A stretch of 53,547 nt of DNA from Chiloscyllium plagiosum (taxonomy: Eukaryota): assembly GCF_004010195.1 (NCBI RefSeq), contig NC_057751.1, positions 16,339,108 through 16,392,654 of the forward strand. Reading direction: 5' to 3'. This document shows positions 783 to 41,201 of this stretch, in pieces. Numbering within the stretch: the stretch's first letter is position 1; every line of letters starts with the position of its first letter. Under the pieces are notes generated by a model, which had not been told where the DNA came from, searched no databases, and saw only the letters and a list, made by a program, of their open reading frames with translations. A program made the position numbers and the translations under genes.

Positions 783-885
783 TGTATCGTTTGGATCCAT
801 CTTCCAGGCAGCAAACCACTGTTAAGACTGCGTCGTCCTCAAAGAACTCCGTGGCGAAAGCATCCCACCAAAGATTGTCGCATTC
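783..885 (-). CDS. Internal exon of an LDB1/LDB2-family (LIM domain-binding/Chip) gene, dimerisation-domain region
   Basis: Minus strand: acceptor ttttttcttctccAG, 103-nt exon, donor A|GTGAGT. Translates ECDNLWWDAFATEFFEDDAVLTVVCCLEDGSKRY(T), matching recalled LDB1 ECDNLWWDAFTTEFFEDDAMLTITFCLEDGPKRYT and LDB2 DSDNLWWDAFATEFFEDDATLTLSFCLEDGPKRYT. Confidence 0.93.
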
Positions 886-938
886 CTGGAGAAGAAAAAA
901 TAAAAATCACGGCCGCGGTGAGTCAAGATACAACCTCA

Positions 939-1074
939 CATTCCTGATGGAGGGCTTTTGCCCGAAACGCCGACTCTCCTGCTCCTCGGATGCTGCCTGA
1001 CCTGCTGTGCTTTCCCAGCACCGCCCACTCTAATCTTGACTCTAATCGCCAGCGTCTGCAGTATTCCCCACTTC
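939..1074 (+). mobile_element. Penelope-like element terminal fragment with degenerate hammerhead (CTGATGG...GGGC TTTT GCCC GAAACGCC)
   Basis: Same family as 9958-10175, 10211-10434, 27165-27257 and 53275-53488. Confidence 0.75.
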
Positions 1075-1699
1075 GGCCGAAACATACAACTGCTAACCCC
1101 AGAGGAAGGCAATGACAACTGAAGTCCATCTATATCTGAAGTTGGGGGGAGGTGGGGGGAACAAAACCTTGAGGGGCAGGGATGACCACAGTCCATTTCG
1201 GCTCACGTTTCCATTACAGGCACACGCCCCTGGGTCGGAATCAAGTTCGGGCAGGCTTCAGGTTCAGGGTGGGGAGGAGATTGACCACAACGGGTCCGGT
1301 GAGGCAGGATTTCAGGGAGAGGCGAAGAGCAGATCTGCTGGCGGTTTGGATAAGGCGAGAGGGAGGGGCAGGGACAACGGGAACGCGGACGGACAGCGAG
1401 CCGCCTCCCAAGGGCTGAGGAAGGGACAAAGGATTTCAAAGGGAAAATCGGACCAGCGCCTGCGAGGCTGCTGGGAGGGAGTGGGACCGACTGGACCGGT
1501 GCACAGAGAGCCGGCCTGGTCCGTCCTCGATGGGCCGAGTGGCCTCTGACAGTGCTGTCAGTGCCTCTGCAGCTCTCGCACACGCTCTTCAGGCACAGGG
1601 GAGCCGTGAACAGGGAAGAAAACAATTCCAGACTCTCGGCTCCCGCGCTGACTCTTGAGCAGCTCGCCTCCCTCAGCTTAGAGCGATCGGACATTGTGG

Positions 1700-1950
1700 A
1701 AACAGTCCATCGGGTCCGCACTGACCCAGCGAAGAGCATCCCACGCAAACCCCACCTCCCTCCCCCCGTATTCCCCACGGCTAACCCACCCAGCCTGCCC
1801 ACGAGGGAATTCAGCACAGCCAACCCACCCTAACCTGCACAGCTTCTCCAGACCTTGGGAGGAAACCCACGCAGACACCGGGGGGGGAGAACGTGCAAAA
1901 TCCACACAGACAGAGGCCCTGATGGTGGAATCAAACCCGGGTCCCTGGGT
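1700..1950 (-). mobile_element. HE1/V-SINE-like tRNA-derived SINE (degenerate)
   Basis: Contains ccaccctaacctgcac...ggaggaaacccacgcagac...gtgcaaaatccacacagac, shared with the other SINE copies. Confidence 0.8.
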
Positions 1951-3042
1951 TCTCCCGCTGCCTTCTTATTCTCTGTCTCTCGTTCTCTCCCTCCCACTGT
2001 ATTCTCTTTCATTCTGTCTCTCACTCTCTCTCTCTCTGGGTTCTCNNNNNNNNNNNNNNNNNNNNNNNNNNNNNNNNNNNNNNNNNNNNNNNNNNNNNNN
2101 NNNNNNNNNNNNNNNNNNNNNNNNNNNNNNNNNNNNNNNNNNNNNNNNNNNNNNNNNNNNNNNNNNNNNNNNNNNNNNNNNNNNNNNNNNNNNNNNNNNN
2201 NNNNNNNNNNNNNNNNNNNNNNNNNNNNNNNNNNNNNNNNNNNNNNNNNNNNNNNNNNNNNNNNNNNNNNNNNNNNNNNNNNNNNNNNNNNNNNNNNNNN
2301 NNNNNNNNNNNNNNNNNNNNNNNNNNNNNNNNNNNNNNNNNNNNNNNNNNNNNNNNNNNNNNNNNNNNNNNNNNNNNNNNNNNNNNNNNNNNNNNNNNNN
2401 NNNNNNNNNNNNNNNNNNNNNNNNNNNNNNNNNNNNNNNNNNNNNNNNNNNNNNNNNNNNNNNNNNNNNNNNNNNNNNNNNNNNNNNNNNNNNNNNNNNN
2501 NNNNNNNNNNNNNNNNNNNNNNNNNNNNNNNNNNNNNNNNNNNNNNNNNNNNNNNNNNNNNNNNNNNNNNNNNNNNNNNNNNNNNNNNNNNNNNNNNNNN
2601 NNNNNNNNNNNNNNNNNNNNNNNNNNNNNNNNNNNNNNNNNNNNNNNNNNNNNNNNNNNNNNNNNNNNNNNNNNNNNNNNNNNNNNNNNNNNNNNNNNNN
2701 NNNNNNNNNNNNNNNNNNNNNNNNNNNNNNNNNNNNNNNNNNNNNNNNNNNNNNNNNNNNNNNNNNNNNNNNNNNNNNNNNNNNNNNNNNNNNNNNNNNN
2801 NNNNNNNNNNNNNNNNNNNNNNNNNNNNNNNNNNNNNNNNNNNNNNNNNNNNNNNNNNNNNNNNNNNNNNNNNNNNNNNNNNNNNNNNNNNNNNNNNNNN
2901 NNNNNNNNNNNNNNNNNNNNNNNNNNNNNNNNNNNNNNNNNNNNNNNNNNNNNNNNNNNNNNNNNNNNNNNNNNNNNNNNNNNNNNNNNNNNNNNNNNNN
3001 NNNNNNNNNNNNNNNNNNNNNNNNNNNNNNNNNNNNNNNNNN

Positions 3043-3575
3043 GACATTGGTTAGGCCACTGTTGGAATATTGCGTGCAATTCTGGTCTCCTTCCTATCGG
3101 AAAGATGTTGTGAAACTTGAAAGGGTTCAGAAAAGATTTACAAGGATGTTTCCAGGGTTGGAGGGTTTGAGCTACAGGGAGAGGCTGAGCAGGCTGGGGC
3201 TGTTTTCCCTGGAGCATCGGAGGCTGAGGGGTGACCTTTTCGAGGTTTACAAAATTATGAGGGGCATGGATAGGACAAAGAGTCAAAGTCTCTTCCCTGA
3301 GGTGGAGGAGCCCAGAACGAGAGGGCATAGGTTTAGGGTGAGAGGGGAAAGATATAAAAGAGACCTAAGGACGTGTATGGAATGAGCTGCCAGAGGATGT
3401 GGTGGAGGCTGGTACAATTGCAACATTTAAGATGGAATTGGGATGGGTATATGAATAGGAAGGGTTTGGAGGGATATGGGCCGGATGCTGGCAGGTGGGA
3501 CTAAATTGGGTTGGGATATCTGGGTCAGCATGGACAGGTTGGACCGAAGGGTCTGTTTCCATCCTGTACATCTCT
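3043..3575 (+). mobile_element. CR1/HER1-like LINE 3' end
   Basis: TLVRPLLEYCVQFWSPSYRKDVVKLERVQKRFTRM...RLRGDL, a typical CR1 ORF2 C-terminus, followed by the family 3' UTR. Confidence 0.93.
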
Positions 3576-4107
3576 GTGACTAAGAAAAGGGCCAAATCAC
3601 CACCGAAACGATGACGTTTCTCTCAGGATTGTCAACCATTTGCTCTGAACTGTACAGTACTCAAAACACCGGCAAGAGATGACAGGACTTTTTATTTTGG
3701 ATTCCAAAACAAAAGTCACGGGGAGGGGTGTGGGGGAACAGTCTCTTTTCAAAGGCAACACGAATCTCGACAAGCCAGAACCAAAATAGTCCTTACCCGA
3801 TAGCGGGCTCCGGGTACGCAGGAGGGTAAGACAGAGTCGGACTACAAATGGAGACAAAAAAAACACAGCGATGTTAATGTCGGCCGTGTTCGCCAGCGCT
3901 CTTTTGTACGCTGTTAGAGCATCCCCTGAACGACGCAGTCCTGCTGTTGAGCAGCTATCTTCACCGTGGAGGTGCCCAGGACACACGTGAGAGACGGTCA
4001 CGTGGCGGGAACGGTCCCGGGCTCGTAAACCAGACGCTTGCACGAACCCTGGTTCAAATCTCACCACAGCCACTGGTCGAGTTTAAAGTCAATGACATCG
4101 TTGTTGA

Positions 4108-4730
4108 TAGAAATGATTTGGATGAGAGCAGAAGCGGTATAGTTACTAAGTTGGCAGATGACACCAGAATCGGGAGTGTTGTGGACAGCGAAGAGGGTTA
4201 CCTCAGATTACAACAGGATCTGGACCAGATGGGCCAATGGGCTGAGAAGTGGCAGATGGAGTTTAATTCAGATAAATGTGAGGTGCTGCATTTTGGGAAA
4301 ACAAATCTTAGCAGGACTTACACACTTAATGGTAAGGTCCTAGGGAGGGTTGCTGAACAAAGAGACCTTGGAGGGCAGGTTCATAGCTCCTTGAAAGTGG
4401 AGTCGCAGGTAGATAGGATAGTGAAGAAGGCATTTGGTATGCTTTCCTTTATTGGTCAGAGTATTGAGTACAGGAGTTGGGAGGTCATGATGCGGCTGTA
4501 CAGGACATGGGTTAGGCCACTGTTGGAATATTGCGTGCAGTTCTGGTCTCCCTGCTATTGGAAGGACGTTGTGTAACTGGAAAGGGTTCAGAAAAGATTT
4601 ACAAGGATGTTGCCAGAGTTGGAGGGTTTGAGCGACAGTGAGAAGCTGATTAGGCTGGGGCTGTTTTTCCTGGAGCGTGAAGGGATGACCGTATCGGGGT
4701 TTATAAAATCATGAGGGACATGGATAGGGT
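4108..4730 (+). mobile_element. CR1/HER1-like LINE RT fragment
   Basis: KLADDTRIG...LQQDLDQMGQWAEKWQMEFNSDKCEVLHFG...LEYCVQFWSP. Confidence 0.93.
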
Positions 4731-4757
4731 GCAGCTTTTCACCAATTAAGTACGTAC

Positions 4758-4861
4758 CCAAGGTCCCGGTCCAGCATGGCTCCCGGGGTCTCAGCAACAC
4801 ACCTCAGCTGAGAGCGAGAGCTCAGCAAGGGTTCACACTCCCAAGACCGTGACTTGATAAC
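4758..4861 (-). CDS. 5' exon of the LDB-family gene carrying the MLDRD(L/V)G start (ATG at 4777-4775)
   Basis: Acceptor ctctgtctctttgttgttgcAG; the exon ends ...PGAMLDRDLG with donor GG|GTACGT (phase 2). Matches recalled LDB1 ...PGTMLDRDVG at the same exon boundary. Sequence upstream of the ATG may be UTR. Confidence 0.8.
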
Positions 4862-6619
4862 CTGCAACAACAAAGAGACAGAGGACGTTAGGCCAGCTGC
4901 AGTAATGAACGCACCCCCTCCCCAGCCGCGATTCAAAACAGACTGATCAAATTGGGCAGGTCAGGAGGAGGCCACTCCACCCAACCAGTCTGTACCAGCT
5001 CCGAAAACAGCTACCCTCGCTGGTCCCTGTCTCAAGTTCCACCCCCAGAGCCCTCGAAATACAACCCATTCAAAGATAGATCCAGTTCGCTCTGACTCAC
5101 TCTCTCCCTCAGGATTCTCTCTGTCTGTCTTTCTCTCTCGCTCTGGGTTCTCTCTCTCTCTCTTCCACCCACTCTGCGTTCTCTCTCATTCATTCTCTCT
5201 CTCTCCCACCCTCTGGCTTCACTCATTCTCACTCTCCCTCTGGGTTCTCTNNNNNNNNNNNNNNNNNNNNNNNNNNNNNNNNNNNNNNNNNNNNNNNNNN
5301 NNNNNNNNNNNNNNNNNNNNNNNNNNNNNNNNNNNNNNNNNNNNNNNNNNNNNNNNNNNNNNNNNNNNNNNNNNNNNNNNNNNNNNNNNNNNNNNNNNNN
5401 NNNNNNNNNNNNNNNNNNNNNNNNNNNNNNNNNNNNNNNNNNNNNNNNNNNNNNNNNNNNNNNNNNNNNNNNNNNNNNNNNNNNNNNNNNNNNNNNNNNN
5501 NNNNNNNNNNNNNNNNNNNNNNNNNNNNNNNNNNNNNNNNNNNNNNNNNNNNNNNNNNNNNNNNNNNNNNNNNNNNNNNNNNNNNNNNNNNNNNNNNNNN
5601 NNNNNNNNNNNNNNNNNNNNNNNNNNNNNNNNNNNNNNNNNNNNNNNNNNNNNNNNNNNNNNNNNNNNNNNNNNNNNNNNNNNNNNNNNNNNNNNNNNNN
5701 NNNNNNNNNNNNNNNNNNNNNNNNNNNNNNNNNNNNNNNNNNNNNNNNNNCGAACGTGTTGTTCTATTCGGTCGATGGCTGCTCAAGGACACATAGCTGG
5801 ATCGGCCTCTCTGTCTCGGAGGCCATTTCCCAAGGAGAAAACAAATCAGTCTTGGGCAATCCCAACCGTCCAGTACGGTGTGCGCGCGCGCTCGCATCTG
5901 TGTCGAGTGAGATGGGGAGAGAGCGCGATCAAGAGCAGGGTATTATGAAATAGTGAACTGGAAGGCAGGAAGCTAGGATTTATTTATAAAAAAGAACGAC
6001 AGAGCGTGTGGGACTTTCAAGAGACAAAGTGCTTTCCTAAGCTTTGAGATTTACATAAAGAAATGTGTCTGTGGGTGGATGTACACAGTTCTGAAATTGA
6101 AACATGGCTGCATGACTGGACACCTTCAGCTTGTTTCGATGTTTTAGCAACCAGCTTGAATCAGCCAATTAATTCACTTAAAGATTGAAAACCAATTGAA
6201 TTTAAATCTGATGGCTTTGACAACGTCGGACCAACGCTAAATGTACAAAAATTGATATGTCATTCAAGGTATAGACGGAGAGAGTTTTTGAAAGTCGGGG
6301 TGAGCGCGAACTGGGACCTGGGAAATAAGCACCGAGCCCTCACAAGAAATCTCTGTGCTCTATAAGGGAGTACTATCTGCCTGTTAAAGGTACCACGGCA
6401 CTACTCGCTAAGAGGCCTCATGGAAGAACTCACAGAGAAAACAGCCCTGACAGCAGGATTTGCAGGAGACAGACATTTAGGCCAGGAGAGACAGTAGAGA
6501 AGACACATTCCGTATAGACTTCGAGAGAGAAAGCTTTAATGTATTTTTTCTTATTAGTTAGGTTTACTGTATATAAGTGAGACTTGTATTTATTGGAATA
6601 CTGGGCGAGAGGGGGCGTG

Positions 6620-6757: not shown

Positions 6758-7316
6758 CTCGCACGATGGAGGAAGAATGTATTCCACTTTTAATTATGCT
6801 GTTTCCTGATTTCCCTCTGAAGTGGCCTGGTTCTGAGTTTAATAACCCATTTTCTCCCCCCCTCTCTCTCTCAGATCCTCTACCCGGCTTCACATTTTCA
6901 ATGTCTCAGATGGATCACCCTTATTGCTGCTTGTTCAGCACCCAGCAACCCCCCCCCCCCCCCNNNNNNNNNNNNNNNNNNNNNNNNNNNNNNNNNNNNN
7001 NNNNNNNNNNNNAAGAAAAAGGCGAGATGTGAACATTATTTCCAACAGCCATTCCTCCCTCAACATCTCACTGCCAGGTCAGCATTTTCCTTCAATGATC
7101 GCTTCAAATTTCTTCTGCTCTGCTTGTTTTAGGGAAGGCGAGAAGCAGATTTGAGGCTGGAGATACAGATATTTAACCAGGGAGAAGAAATCAAGGGTCA
7201 CGGGGGCGAGCGCAGCGAGAGGATGATCAGATTGGTTAGAGTAGAGCTGACACGACGGGCTGAATGGCCTACTGCTGCTTTTCCCGCCTCGATTGTACTG
7301 CCCTGTGGGCACTCAC

Positions 7317-7789
7317 CGCTGCAGCTCCTCGTCCTGAATCCTCTCGTTGTCCCACATGAAGGCGGCAGCAAAGGCAGCCACCAGCTTGCCGCCAGTGCCC
7401 CGGTTCCGGCTGTGGAATCGCCTCCACAGGCTGGTGATCAGGCCCCGGCGGGACCGCTCCGAGTACAGGTTGCTGTACAGCTGCCCGATCTGCTGTGCCC
7501 TCCGCAGCCTCTGCCCGGTCACGTAGCTGCACTGACTGGCGAGAATCGACACCAGCTTCTGGCGGGCCACACCCCTCGAGCCGCCGCCGCGATCCCTCAG
7601 CCAGCCCAGTGCCCACCGCTGGACGTCACCCGCCCACTTCCTCCAGGCCTCCGGCTCAACTACCTTGCGCCAACCCCCGGGCTGGCTCGAGAAGCAGGCC
7701 GAGCGCAGCCACTGCGAGTAGGACTCGCCGAGCGGCGGCTTCGAACGGGCTGAGGGCAGGAGTACGGCTGGCCTCCTCACGGTCAACAT
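7317..7789 (-). CDS. STARD7: STARD7 first coding exon (mitochondrial-targeted N-terminus of the StAR-related lipid transfer protein 7)
   Basis: gccATG at 7789. The peptide ...ILASQCSYVTGQRLRRAQQIGQLYSNLYSERSRRGLITSLWRRFH...AAFAAAFMWDNERIQDEELQR matches recalled STARD7 (LLANQCRFVTGLRVRRAQQIAQLYGRLYSE...VWDEERIQEEELQR). Donor CG|GTGAGT at 7317/7316. An acceptor ttttgtccgcAG at 7817 implies an upstream UTR exon. Confidence 0.93.
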
Positions 7790-8450: not shown

Positions 8451-8634
8451 GATAACATCCTCCCCCACCATCACAACTGATATCCGTATAACACGTGGCT
8501 GGGTGGCCGGGGAAAGCGAAGAGAAGGAAAGCGGTTACTGACCGCCAGGAGAAGCGCGAGAGGCACGGGTCATACCTCCAGCGGAAATGAGGAGCCCCGG
8601 AACCTGAATATCCGATAACCAGCTGGGAGGAGAC

Positions 8635-9725
8635 GGGGCAATGTGAGCATGCTCAGTGTGTTGGAGAGGCGGGGCAATGTGAGCATGCTCAGTGTGTTGG
8701 GGAGGCGGGGCAATGCGAGCATGCTCAGTGTTGGGGAGGCGGGGCAATGTGAGCATGCTCAGTGTTGGGGAGTCGGGGCAATGTGAGCATGCTCCAAGTG
8801 CAGGGAGGAAATGGGGCAATGTGAGCATGCTCAGTGTGTTGGGGAGGCGGGGCAATGTGAGCATGCTCAGTGTGTTGGGGAGGCGGGGCAATGTGAGCAT
8901 GCTCAGTGTGTTGGGGAGGCGGGGCAATGTGAGCATGCTCAGTGTGTTGGGGAGGCGGGGCAATGTGAGCATGCTCAGTGTGTTGGGGAGGCGGGGCAAT
9001 GTGAGCATGCTCAGTGTGTTGGGGAGGCGGGGCAATGTGAGCATGCTCAGTGTGTTGGAGAGGCGGGGCAATGTGAGCATGCTCAGTGTGTTGGAGAGGC
9101 GGGGCAATGTGAGCATGCTCAGTGTGTTGGAGAGGCGGGGCAATGTGAGCATGCTCAGTGTGTTGGAGAGGCGGGGCAATGTGAGCATGCTCAGTGTGTT
9201 GGAGAGGCGGGGCAATGTGAGCATGCTCAGTGTGTTGGAGAGGCGGGGCAATGTGAGCATGCTCAGTGTGTTGGAGAGGCGGGGCAATGTGAGCATGCTC
9301 AGTGTGTTGGAGAGGCGGGGCAATGTGAGCATGCTCAGTGTGTTGGAGAGGCGGGGCAATGTGAGCATGCTCAGTGTTGGGGAGTCGGGGCAATGTGAGC
9401 ATGCTCCAAGTGCAGGGAGGAAATGGGGCAATGTGAGCATGCTCAGTGTTGGGGAGTCGGGGCAATGTGAGCATGCTCCAAGTGCAGGGAGGAAATGGGG
9501 CAATGTGAGCATGCTCAGTGTTGGGGAGTCGGGGCAATGTGAGCATGCTCCAAGTGCAGGGGCAATGTGAGCATGCTCACTGTGTTGGGGAAGATGGGGC
9601 AATGTCAGCATGGTCAGTGTGCAGGAGGAGATGGGACAATGTCAGCATGGTCAGGGTGTTGGGGAGATGGGGCAATGTGAGCATGCCCAGAACAGGATGG
9701 GGAGAAGGGGCAGTGAGCATGCTCA
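8635..9725. repeat. 30-bp minisatellite (about 35 units) with internal palindrome TGAGCATGCTCA
   Basis: Unit ggggcaatgtgagcatgctcagtgtgttgg(g/a)gaggc is directly visible, with interspersed longer variants (...ccaagtgcagggaggaaat...). It explains the periodic ORFs at 8535-9611. Confidence 0.97.
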
Positions 9726-40979: not shown

Positions 40980-41201
40980 ATGCATCGATTAAGGACTTGT
41001 GCTGCTAAGCTGAGGCCACTGACGGCCTCTCAGACTGCTAAAACATTATCACACAATGGGCCAGTAGTGTCTAGGACGTTTCAGCAAGGTCGCTTCTACA
41101 CAGCGCCTGTGGCAGCTGAGCCCTTTCTGAGCGGGACTAGTTCGAACTATGTTGAGGAAATGTACTTTGCGTGGCTTGAGAATCCACAGAGTGTTCATAA
41201 G
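40980..41201 (+). CDS. OGDH: 2-oxoglutarate dehydrogenase E1, first coding exon (74 codons; mitochondrial presequence)
   Basis: [24 protein letters not shown]...[35 protein letters not shown], the characteristic OGDH N-terminus. Acceptor ttccAG(CAG) at 40944/40947 and donor AAG|GTAAGC at 41201. No further OGDH exon was recognised in the window. Confidence 0.97.

Follow-up and report, generated by a model that had tools for sequence, protein, structure and literature searches.

A third LDB-family gene common to sharks, rays and chimaera, likely a whole-genome-duplication sister of LDB1

Enhancer complexes of the LIM-homeodomain, GATA1/TAL1 and Wnt type are built around a looping core of LDB proteins. 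Two such proteins are assigned to vertebrates in the literature consulted, LDB1 (NLI/CLIM2) and LDB2 (CLIM1). The stretch analyzed here, hereafter the window, comprises 53,547 nucleotides (nt) of Chiloscyllium plagiosum (assembly GCF_004010195.1, contig NC_057751.1, positions 16,339,108 to 16,392,654) and carries on its minus strand part of an additional gene of this family. With high probability, this is a third LDB gene that exists beside LDB1 and LDB2 and is common to sharks, rays, and chimaera; it is likely a sister of LDB1 arising from the second round of whole-genome duplication (2R) that seems to have disappeared from bony vertebrates, and its predicted product is an ordinary LDB scaffold. 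The chromosome of the window is designated C42; C22, C1, C38, C50, and C14 are other sequences of the same genome, and C101895 and C72821 are unplaced. Published work is cited by PMC number.

The closest described gene is LDB1, which forms the sister clade of the third gene and shares with it identical lengths and phases of exons 3, 5, 6, 7, and 9, the MLDRD start, and every mapped contact residue for SSBP and Pygo; the two are about 80% identical. However, the third gene lies on another chromosome, has no LDB1-type sequence upstream of its first methionine, shows clade-wide changes at 15 of the 219 sites where LDB1 and LDB2 agree, and has the higher rate of evolution in 7 of 8 relative-rate tests. 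LDB2 has the same domain layout and shares eight diagnostic sites with the third gene against LDB1, most of which are also the outgroup state. In contrast, a sister relationship with LDB2 is rejected (approximately unbiased (AU) test, p 0.014), and the third gene is compact, with exons 2–9 in about 14 kb versus about 290 kb for exons 4–11 of LDB2; its identity between shark and chimaera is 85–87% versus 97% for LDB2. A like history has been described for 19 ohnologues that chondrichthyans retained and bony fishes lost, wnt6b and cspg5 among those named, and the location of the third gene on a beta segment with faster evolution also agrees with the account in that paper (PMC10115646). Retention of ohnologues in cartilaginous fishes is thus a well-known phenomenon, which limits the surprise of the present case; the main text of that paper makes no mention of LDB, which may be among its list of 68 ohnologues. 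LDB3 (ZASP/Cypher) is alike in name alone, being a PDZ-LIM protein unrelated to the Chip/LDB family, as is the lamprey “Ldb3” (PMC2671401), and the third gene should not be called LDB3.

Among the sources searched, which covered supplements only in part and had subscription papers outside their scope, no published description of a third LDB gene was found, and the genome papers on whale shark, skate, and catshark contain no “ldb” in their main texts. The gene has already been annotated automatically as LDB1-like, and as an ohnologue it is apparently undescribed; expression or knockdown work on shark and skate “Ldb1” may mix two genes.

Searches with exon 5 and with exon 9 each returned three places in the genome, on C42, C22, and C1. 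The C22 locus encodes a complete LDB1 of 375 residues (94% identical to a primate LDB1), and the C1 locus is LDB2, with a complete reading frame (92% identical to a rodent LDB2). The genome thus carries three LDB loci, with the third gene coexisting with separate LDB1 and LDB2 genes. A weak family match on C50 (E 0.25) was rejected as a fourth locus, as its translation shows no LDB sequence. The first-pass annotation of the window had described two minus-strand exons with canonical splice sites, at 4758–4861 and 783–885, and both were confirmed; the exons (LDB1 numbering) and the gaps among them are as follows.

Window 4758–4861, minus strand: exon 2, with AG/GT ends and a likely ATG at 4777, encoding MLDRDLG.
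Window 3797–3841, minus strand: exon 3, 45 nt, phase 2-2, missed in the first-pass annotation.
Window 2046–3042: assembly gap of 997 bases, the expected place of exon 4, which has 76 nt in both paralogues.
Window 783–885, minus strand: exon 5, 103 nt, with AG/GT ends, part of the dimerisation domain.
C42:16335622–16335794, minus strand: exon 6, left of the window.
C42:16333745–16333867, minus strand: exon 7, left of the window.
C42:16332896–16332973, minus strand: exon 8, left of the window.
C42:16330895–16331018, minus strand: exon 9, left of the window.
C42:16325874–16329884: gap of 4011 bases, where exons 10 and 11 would be expected.

Allowing for a 76-nt exon 4, the seven exons found (2, 3, and 5–9) join without stop or frameshift and have canonical splice sites. 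The methionine of MLDRDLG is the start in most orthologue models, all 15 residues of exon 3 are identical to the Hemiscyllium orthologue, and the 34 residues of exon 5 (ECDNLWW...GSKRY) match solved LDB1 and LDB2 chains (E 5e-16 and 2e-14, respectively). Exon 4, which is present in the orthologue proteins, gave matches only on C22 and C1 in a genome-wide search and none on C101895; likewise, neither exon 10 nor the LID exon 11 was found in the assembly, the latter having been sought genome-wide and on C101895. Exons 4, 10, and 11 likely fall in assembly gaps. The database entry “LIM domain-binding protein 1-like [Chiloscyllium plagiosum]” shows 100% identity over exon 6, and its N- and C-terminal ends, unlike those of all orthologues, are likely a gene-model patch over these gaps.

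Phylogenetic analysis was performed with FastTree on 55 rows and with IQ-TREE (347 columns, JTT+G4) on 30 of those, after 25 redundant isoforms or species and unnamed fragments had been dropped; the two topologies agree, and support is given for IQ-TREE as SH-aLRT/UFBoot (Shimodaira–Hasegawa-like approximate likelihood ratio test/ultrafast bootstrap). The third gene forms a clade of its own (100/100), outside the LDB2 clade and outside the LDB1 clade, in which the shark C22 gene groups with six bony vertebrates (99.4/100). LDB1 and the third gene are sisters to the exclusion of LDB2, cyclostomes, and invertebrates (99.4/100), and the cyclostomes branch outside all three clades, less strongly supported (80/88). 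Besides the LDB2 sisterhood mentioned above, the AU tests reject a duplication confined to sharks (p 0.003) and a placement of the gene outside LDB1 and LDB2 alike (p 0.006); the more conservative Shimodaira–Hasegawa (SH) test rejects the LDB2 sisterhood only. Tree and AU tests place the duplication before the split of sharks and bony fishes and after that of the invertebrates. The earlier view that the gene is neither LDB1 nor LDB2 is borne out by these results.

The neighborhood of the gene bears on its origin, and the features of the window concerned are the following.

Window 7317–7789, minus strand: first coding exon of STARD7.
Window 40980–41201, plus strand: first coding exon of OGDH (PF16078).
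Window 5251–5750: gap, a likely place (or else the next gap) of the 88 kb of C101895.
Window 6964–7012: gap, the alternative place of C101895.

STARD7 and OGDH are each represented in the window by this single coding exon. The later STARD7 exons lie on the unplaced 88-kb scaffold C101895 (1–87961), followed by a PGAM gene and then a KCNIP gene. Because STARD7 is split between C42 and C101895, one or the other of the two gaps, between the third LDB gene and STARD7 exon 1, is the likely place of the scaffold, which would make KCNIP3 the nearer neighbor; no end overlap tying C101895 to either gap was found. One KCNIP exon of the scaffold is closest to calsenilin/KCNIP3, and another scores best overall against KCNIP4 but has a start in common only with calsenilin among the five alignments shown. 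The first-pass annotation had set the gene beside STARD7 and OGDH, and the closeness to STARD7 was thereby overstated. A read-through of STARD7 and LDB, with STARD7 exon 1 just upstream on the same strand, was rejected, since the other STARD7 exons are on C101895 and relatives have a full STARD7.

With NPC1L1 and DUSP2 to the left of the gene, the local order reads DUSP2, NPC1L1, LDB, KCNIP3, PGAM2-like, STARD7, OGDH, where the part from KCNIP3 to STARD7 follows from the probable placement of C101895. We take human DUSP2, STARD7, and KCNIP3 to lie on 2q11 and NPC1L1, PGAM2, and OGDH on 7p13, so that both flanks of the third gene would belong to one mixed neighborhood. In 13 of 15 comparable species, the record carrying the LDB-like protein and that carrying STARD7 have the same length, the two exceptions being a 91-kb piece and a case of two different assemblies, and their accession numbers are within about 30 of each other in eight species, which is only a hint. 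An earlier doubt, that the contigs left of the gap at 5251–5750 might belong elsewhere, is answered by both flanks and by this pairing: the LDB contigs are part of this chromosome arm.

Elsewhere on C42, an FGF and a nucleoplasmin gene lie 90 kb apart at 1.39–1.47 Mb. On C22, LDB1 has an FGF at a distance of 0.4 Mb and a prominin at 0.15 Mb, and on C1 a prominin is 1.5 Mb from LDB2, with an FGF/nucleoplasmin pair of its own. The labels FGF8, FGF17, NPM2, PGAM2, and STAR used for such genes are presumed from motifs and position. On chicken chromosome 22, Fgf17, Npm2, and Kcnip3 have been assigned to a fourth paralogon, sister to the Ldb1 paralogon, for which no Ldb entry is given in tetrapods or teleosts (PMC2446394). 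In the skate, LER15 and LER34 correspond to chicken 6 (1-alpha) and LER35 to chicken 22 (1-beta), with Ldb1-1 on LER15 and Pgam2-2 on LER35, and beta segments show faster evolution and more gene loss (PMC10115646). The neighbors of the third gene (DUSP2, NPC1L1, KCNIP3, PGAM2, STARD7, and OGDH, together with the FGF17-like and nucleoplasmin genes) fit such a chicken-22-type 1-beta chromosome, which is the sister, by 2R, of the chromosome bearing LDB1, and paralogon synteny is upheld as a basis for the duplicate origin. The first round (1R) would have split the ancestor of LDB1 and the third gene from LDB2; 2R would then have given LDB1 on the 1-alpha chromosome (C22) and the third gene on the small 1-beta chromosome (C42), and the 2R twin of LDB2 would have been lost. 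The third gene, conserved from chimaera to rays, would fill the empty Ldb slot of the fourth Lbx/NK paralogon and date the LDB1/LDB2 split to 1R.

Several observations weigh against this interpretation. No KCNIP or nucleoplasmin exon was found between the FGF8-like gene and LDB1 (C22:44760001–45140000), and nucleoplasmin had no match anywhere on C22. In human, NPM3 and KCNIP2 occupy that interval (PMC2446394). A search for prominin over about 250 kb surrounding the third gene, and on C101895, found none, and the OGDHL-like gene is on C38, possibly the counterpart of skate LER34, and not on the LDB1 chromosome. In addition, the constrained trees came from a fast search under the unselected JTT+G4 model, and the tree contains a single chondrichthyan LDB1 and no named amphioxus sequence. 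The absence from bony vertebrates rests on the best 120 of 177, 120 of 906, and 150 of 1211 matches and on one 2008 paper, this genome yielded no LID exon and both Hemiscyllium models are without LID, and the RNA nature of the four sequencing runs discussed below is the guess of a tool.

The genome search was confined to C. plagiosum, and bony vertebrates were covered by protein listings. In a database search with exon 6, nine chondrichthyan clusters matched at 81–100% identity, to which cluster members add skates, rays, and more sharks (15 of the 105 members for the main cluster); orthologues labeled “LDB1-like” occur in at least 18 chondrichthyan species including a chimaera, counting one partial catshark model. 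Retention in cartilaginous fishes, as proposed in the first-pass annotation, agrees with a separate clade across sharks, rays, and chimaera. It could be argued that the 2R ohnologue survives, diverged or unannotated, in some bony vertebrates and is not specific to chondrichthyans: of 68 ohnologues with differential retention, coelacanth or ray-finned fishes share 41, against the 19 that are chondrichthyan-only (PMC10115646), and the protein listings are partial. However, in the exon 6 search (best 120 of 177) identity falls from 81% to 72% with nothing between. Among the 397 LDB-like proteins retrieved, 41 score best against the third gene, of which 34 are named chondrichthyan and seven are unnamed and distant with margins of at most 9 bits, and bichir, sturgeon, lungfish, and arowana proteins are placed within LDB1 or LDB2 by FastTree. 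With no bony-vertebrate member of the group among the matches listed, survival there seems unlikely, and the gene has apparently been lost from these animals, as far as these limited listings indicate.

The protein of the third gene has the N-terminal dimerisation domain (PF01803; orthologue versus solved LDB1, E 3e-133), the LCCD with its SSBP-binding helix (M216, L219, M220), and the lateral patch (Y81, L87, R90). A basic nuclear localisation signal follows the LCCD in the orthologues, and the start of its exon, missing from the assembly, is present in run contigs. LID (PF17916) is found in 10 of 17 representative orthologue models. The AlphaFold monomer model of the protein is of too low a quality for use, with a pLDDT (predicted local distance difference test) of 43. 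SSBP binding requires Y81, L87, and R90 together with the LCCD helix methionines (PMC6800368), and Pygo contacts R232, N237, N241, R244, L245, and I248 of LDB1 (PMC10287724), which are renumbered here by minus 36. The contact residues Y81, I83, L87, R90, R196, N201, N205, R208, L209, I212, M216, L219, and M220 are all unchanged, suggesting that the third gene likely works as an ordinary LDB scaffold that evolves faster.

The first-pass annotation had read the gene as a mosaic with an LDB2-like AFAT and with FCLEDGPKRY changed to CCLEDGSKRY, and had suggested altered dimerisation or relaxed selection. The mosaic does not hold, because no more than 2 of 17 orthologues have AFAT, because lamprey, hagfish, and a beetle have it too, and because the gene is a sister of LDB1. 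As for the motif, F72C is found throughout the clade (17 of 17), whereas P78S is present in 2 of 17 and confined to two bamboo-shark genera. Nothing in this analysis links the motif to dimerisation, and this suggestion is unsupported; the residues just after it (Y81, L87, R90) face SSBP (PMC6800368). Faster evolution, in contrast, is supported by the rate tests, most markedly on the bamboo-shark branch (length 0.10 in IQ-TREE), where nine otherwise invariant positions are changed before the tail.

The clade-wide changes are distributed as 0/47 in the LCCD, 0/27 in residues 23–64, 2/36 in LID, 6/47 in residues 97–172, and 5/18 in residues 173–197, providing natural variants for exploring which LDB surfaces may change (apex helices, beta-sheet) and which may not (LCCD). 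Residues 173–192 are needed for FOG1 recruitment and not for dimerisation or looping (PMC4066399), and there 4 of 14 sites at which LDB1 and LDB2 agree are changed, against 11 of 205 elsewhere (p 0.01). It is conceivable that the changed apex helices alter FOG1/NuRD recruitment and that loss of the LID exon in bamboo and epaulette sharks produced a competitor of LDB1 and LDB2. This functionally altered scaffold would agree with K192N and N193S, at sites otherwise invariant to insects, with the long bamboo-shark branch, and with the lack of LID in three bamboo or epaulette shark models and in this assembly. However, the excess vanishes at sites where the outgroups are also invariant (1/6 versus 3/147, p 0.15), and S173 and P185 are also found in hagfish. 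Isoforms without LID are also present in species that have retained isoforms with it, the 4 kb gap covers the expected place of LID, and two run contigs extend 441 and 568 nt beyond exon 9, leaving room for a LID exon. An altered scaffold is thus doubtful; with the excess gone, an ordinary scaffold is favored and re-tuning of the apex is a weaker lead. Equally tentative is a broader proposal in which the jawed-vertebrate ancestor had three LDB scaffolds and the third, now restricted to cartilaginous fishes, would loop chromatin through intact SSBP and Pygo surfaces while re-tuned apex helices recruit other co-regulators, with LID shed in bamboo and epaulette sharks to give a natural modulator of LDB1 and LDB2.

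Judged from its sequence, the third gene probably acts as an ordinary LDB scaffold kept by divided expression. Its protein would dimerise through the N-terminal domain, its LCCD would bind SSBP dimers and NPF-motif proteins (Pygo), and its LID, in most species, would bind LIM-homeodomain and LMO proteins. It could thereby bridge enhancers and promoters, with a function largely overlapping that of LDB1 and a divided expression pattern; with less assurance, its apex helices (residues 173–193) may recruit co-regulators somewhat differently.

A small-scale duplicate of LDB1, arisen within cartilaginous fishes and moved to C42, would account for the third gene being closest to LDB1 (78.6% versus 76.0% to LDB2) and for its occurrence only in chondrichthyans among the matches listed, and a young duplicate that evolves faster may be placed too far out in a tree. 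Nevertheless, this origin is very improbable: shark LDB1 groups firmly with bony-vertebrate LDB1, the AU test rejects a shark-only duplication (SH 0.052, not significant), and synonymous sites are saturated against shark LDB1 (proportions of nonsynonymous and synonymous differences, pN 0.12 and pS 0.87). The third gene also lies on the chromosome expected of a 2R copy, likely adjoining KCNIP3.

Junctions of exons 8, 9, and 10 are present in contigs of all four probable RNA runs, from four studies, and these contigs supply the start of exon 10 that is missing from the assembly; two raw-read RNA runs gave no exon coverage of the gene. Against contigs of related organisms, exon 9 shows six differences, five synonymous and one replacement. 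The replacement, of an otherwise invariant LCCD glutamine by arginine at C42:16330924, is found in one related organism in two studies, and hints at relaxed constraint in this shark lineage. Although three exons are missing from the assembly, the region is mis-scaffolded, and this glutamine is replaced, a decaying pseudogene or assembly artefact has only the slightest probability and is already refuted for the clade by the seven open exons with canonical splice sites, the exon 10 sequence in all four runs, the full-length orthologues in other species, and the low pN relative to pS.

Some further features were observed. On C101895, an open frame with a KH domain lies between STARD7 and PGAM (68409–68864, minus strand); it is possibly a processed pseudogene, and resembles an IGF2BP fragment. 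A prominin exon on the 2.9-kb unplaced contig C72821 (2088–2336) is a candidate piece of the missing PROM2. Two near-identical nucleoplasmin genes are located on opposite strands within 9 kb at C14:66740973–66749477, reflecting either local duplication or an assembly duplicate. Upstream of STARD7 exon 1, a tandem array of units of about 33 bases (window 8600–9640) yields long spurious open frames.

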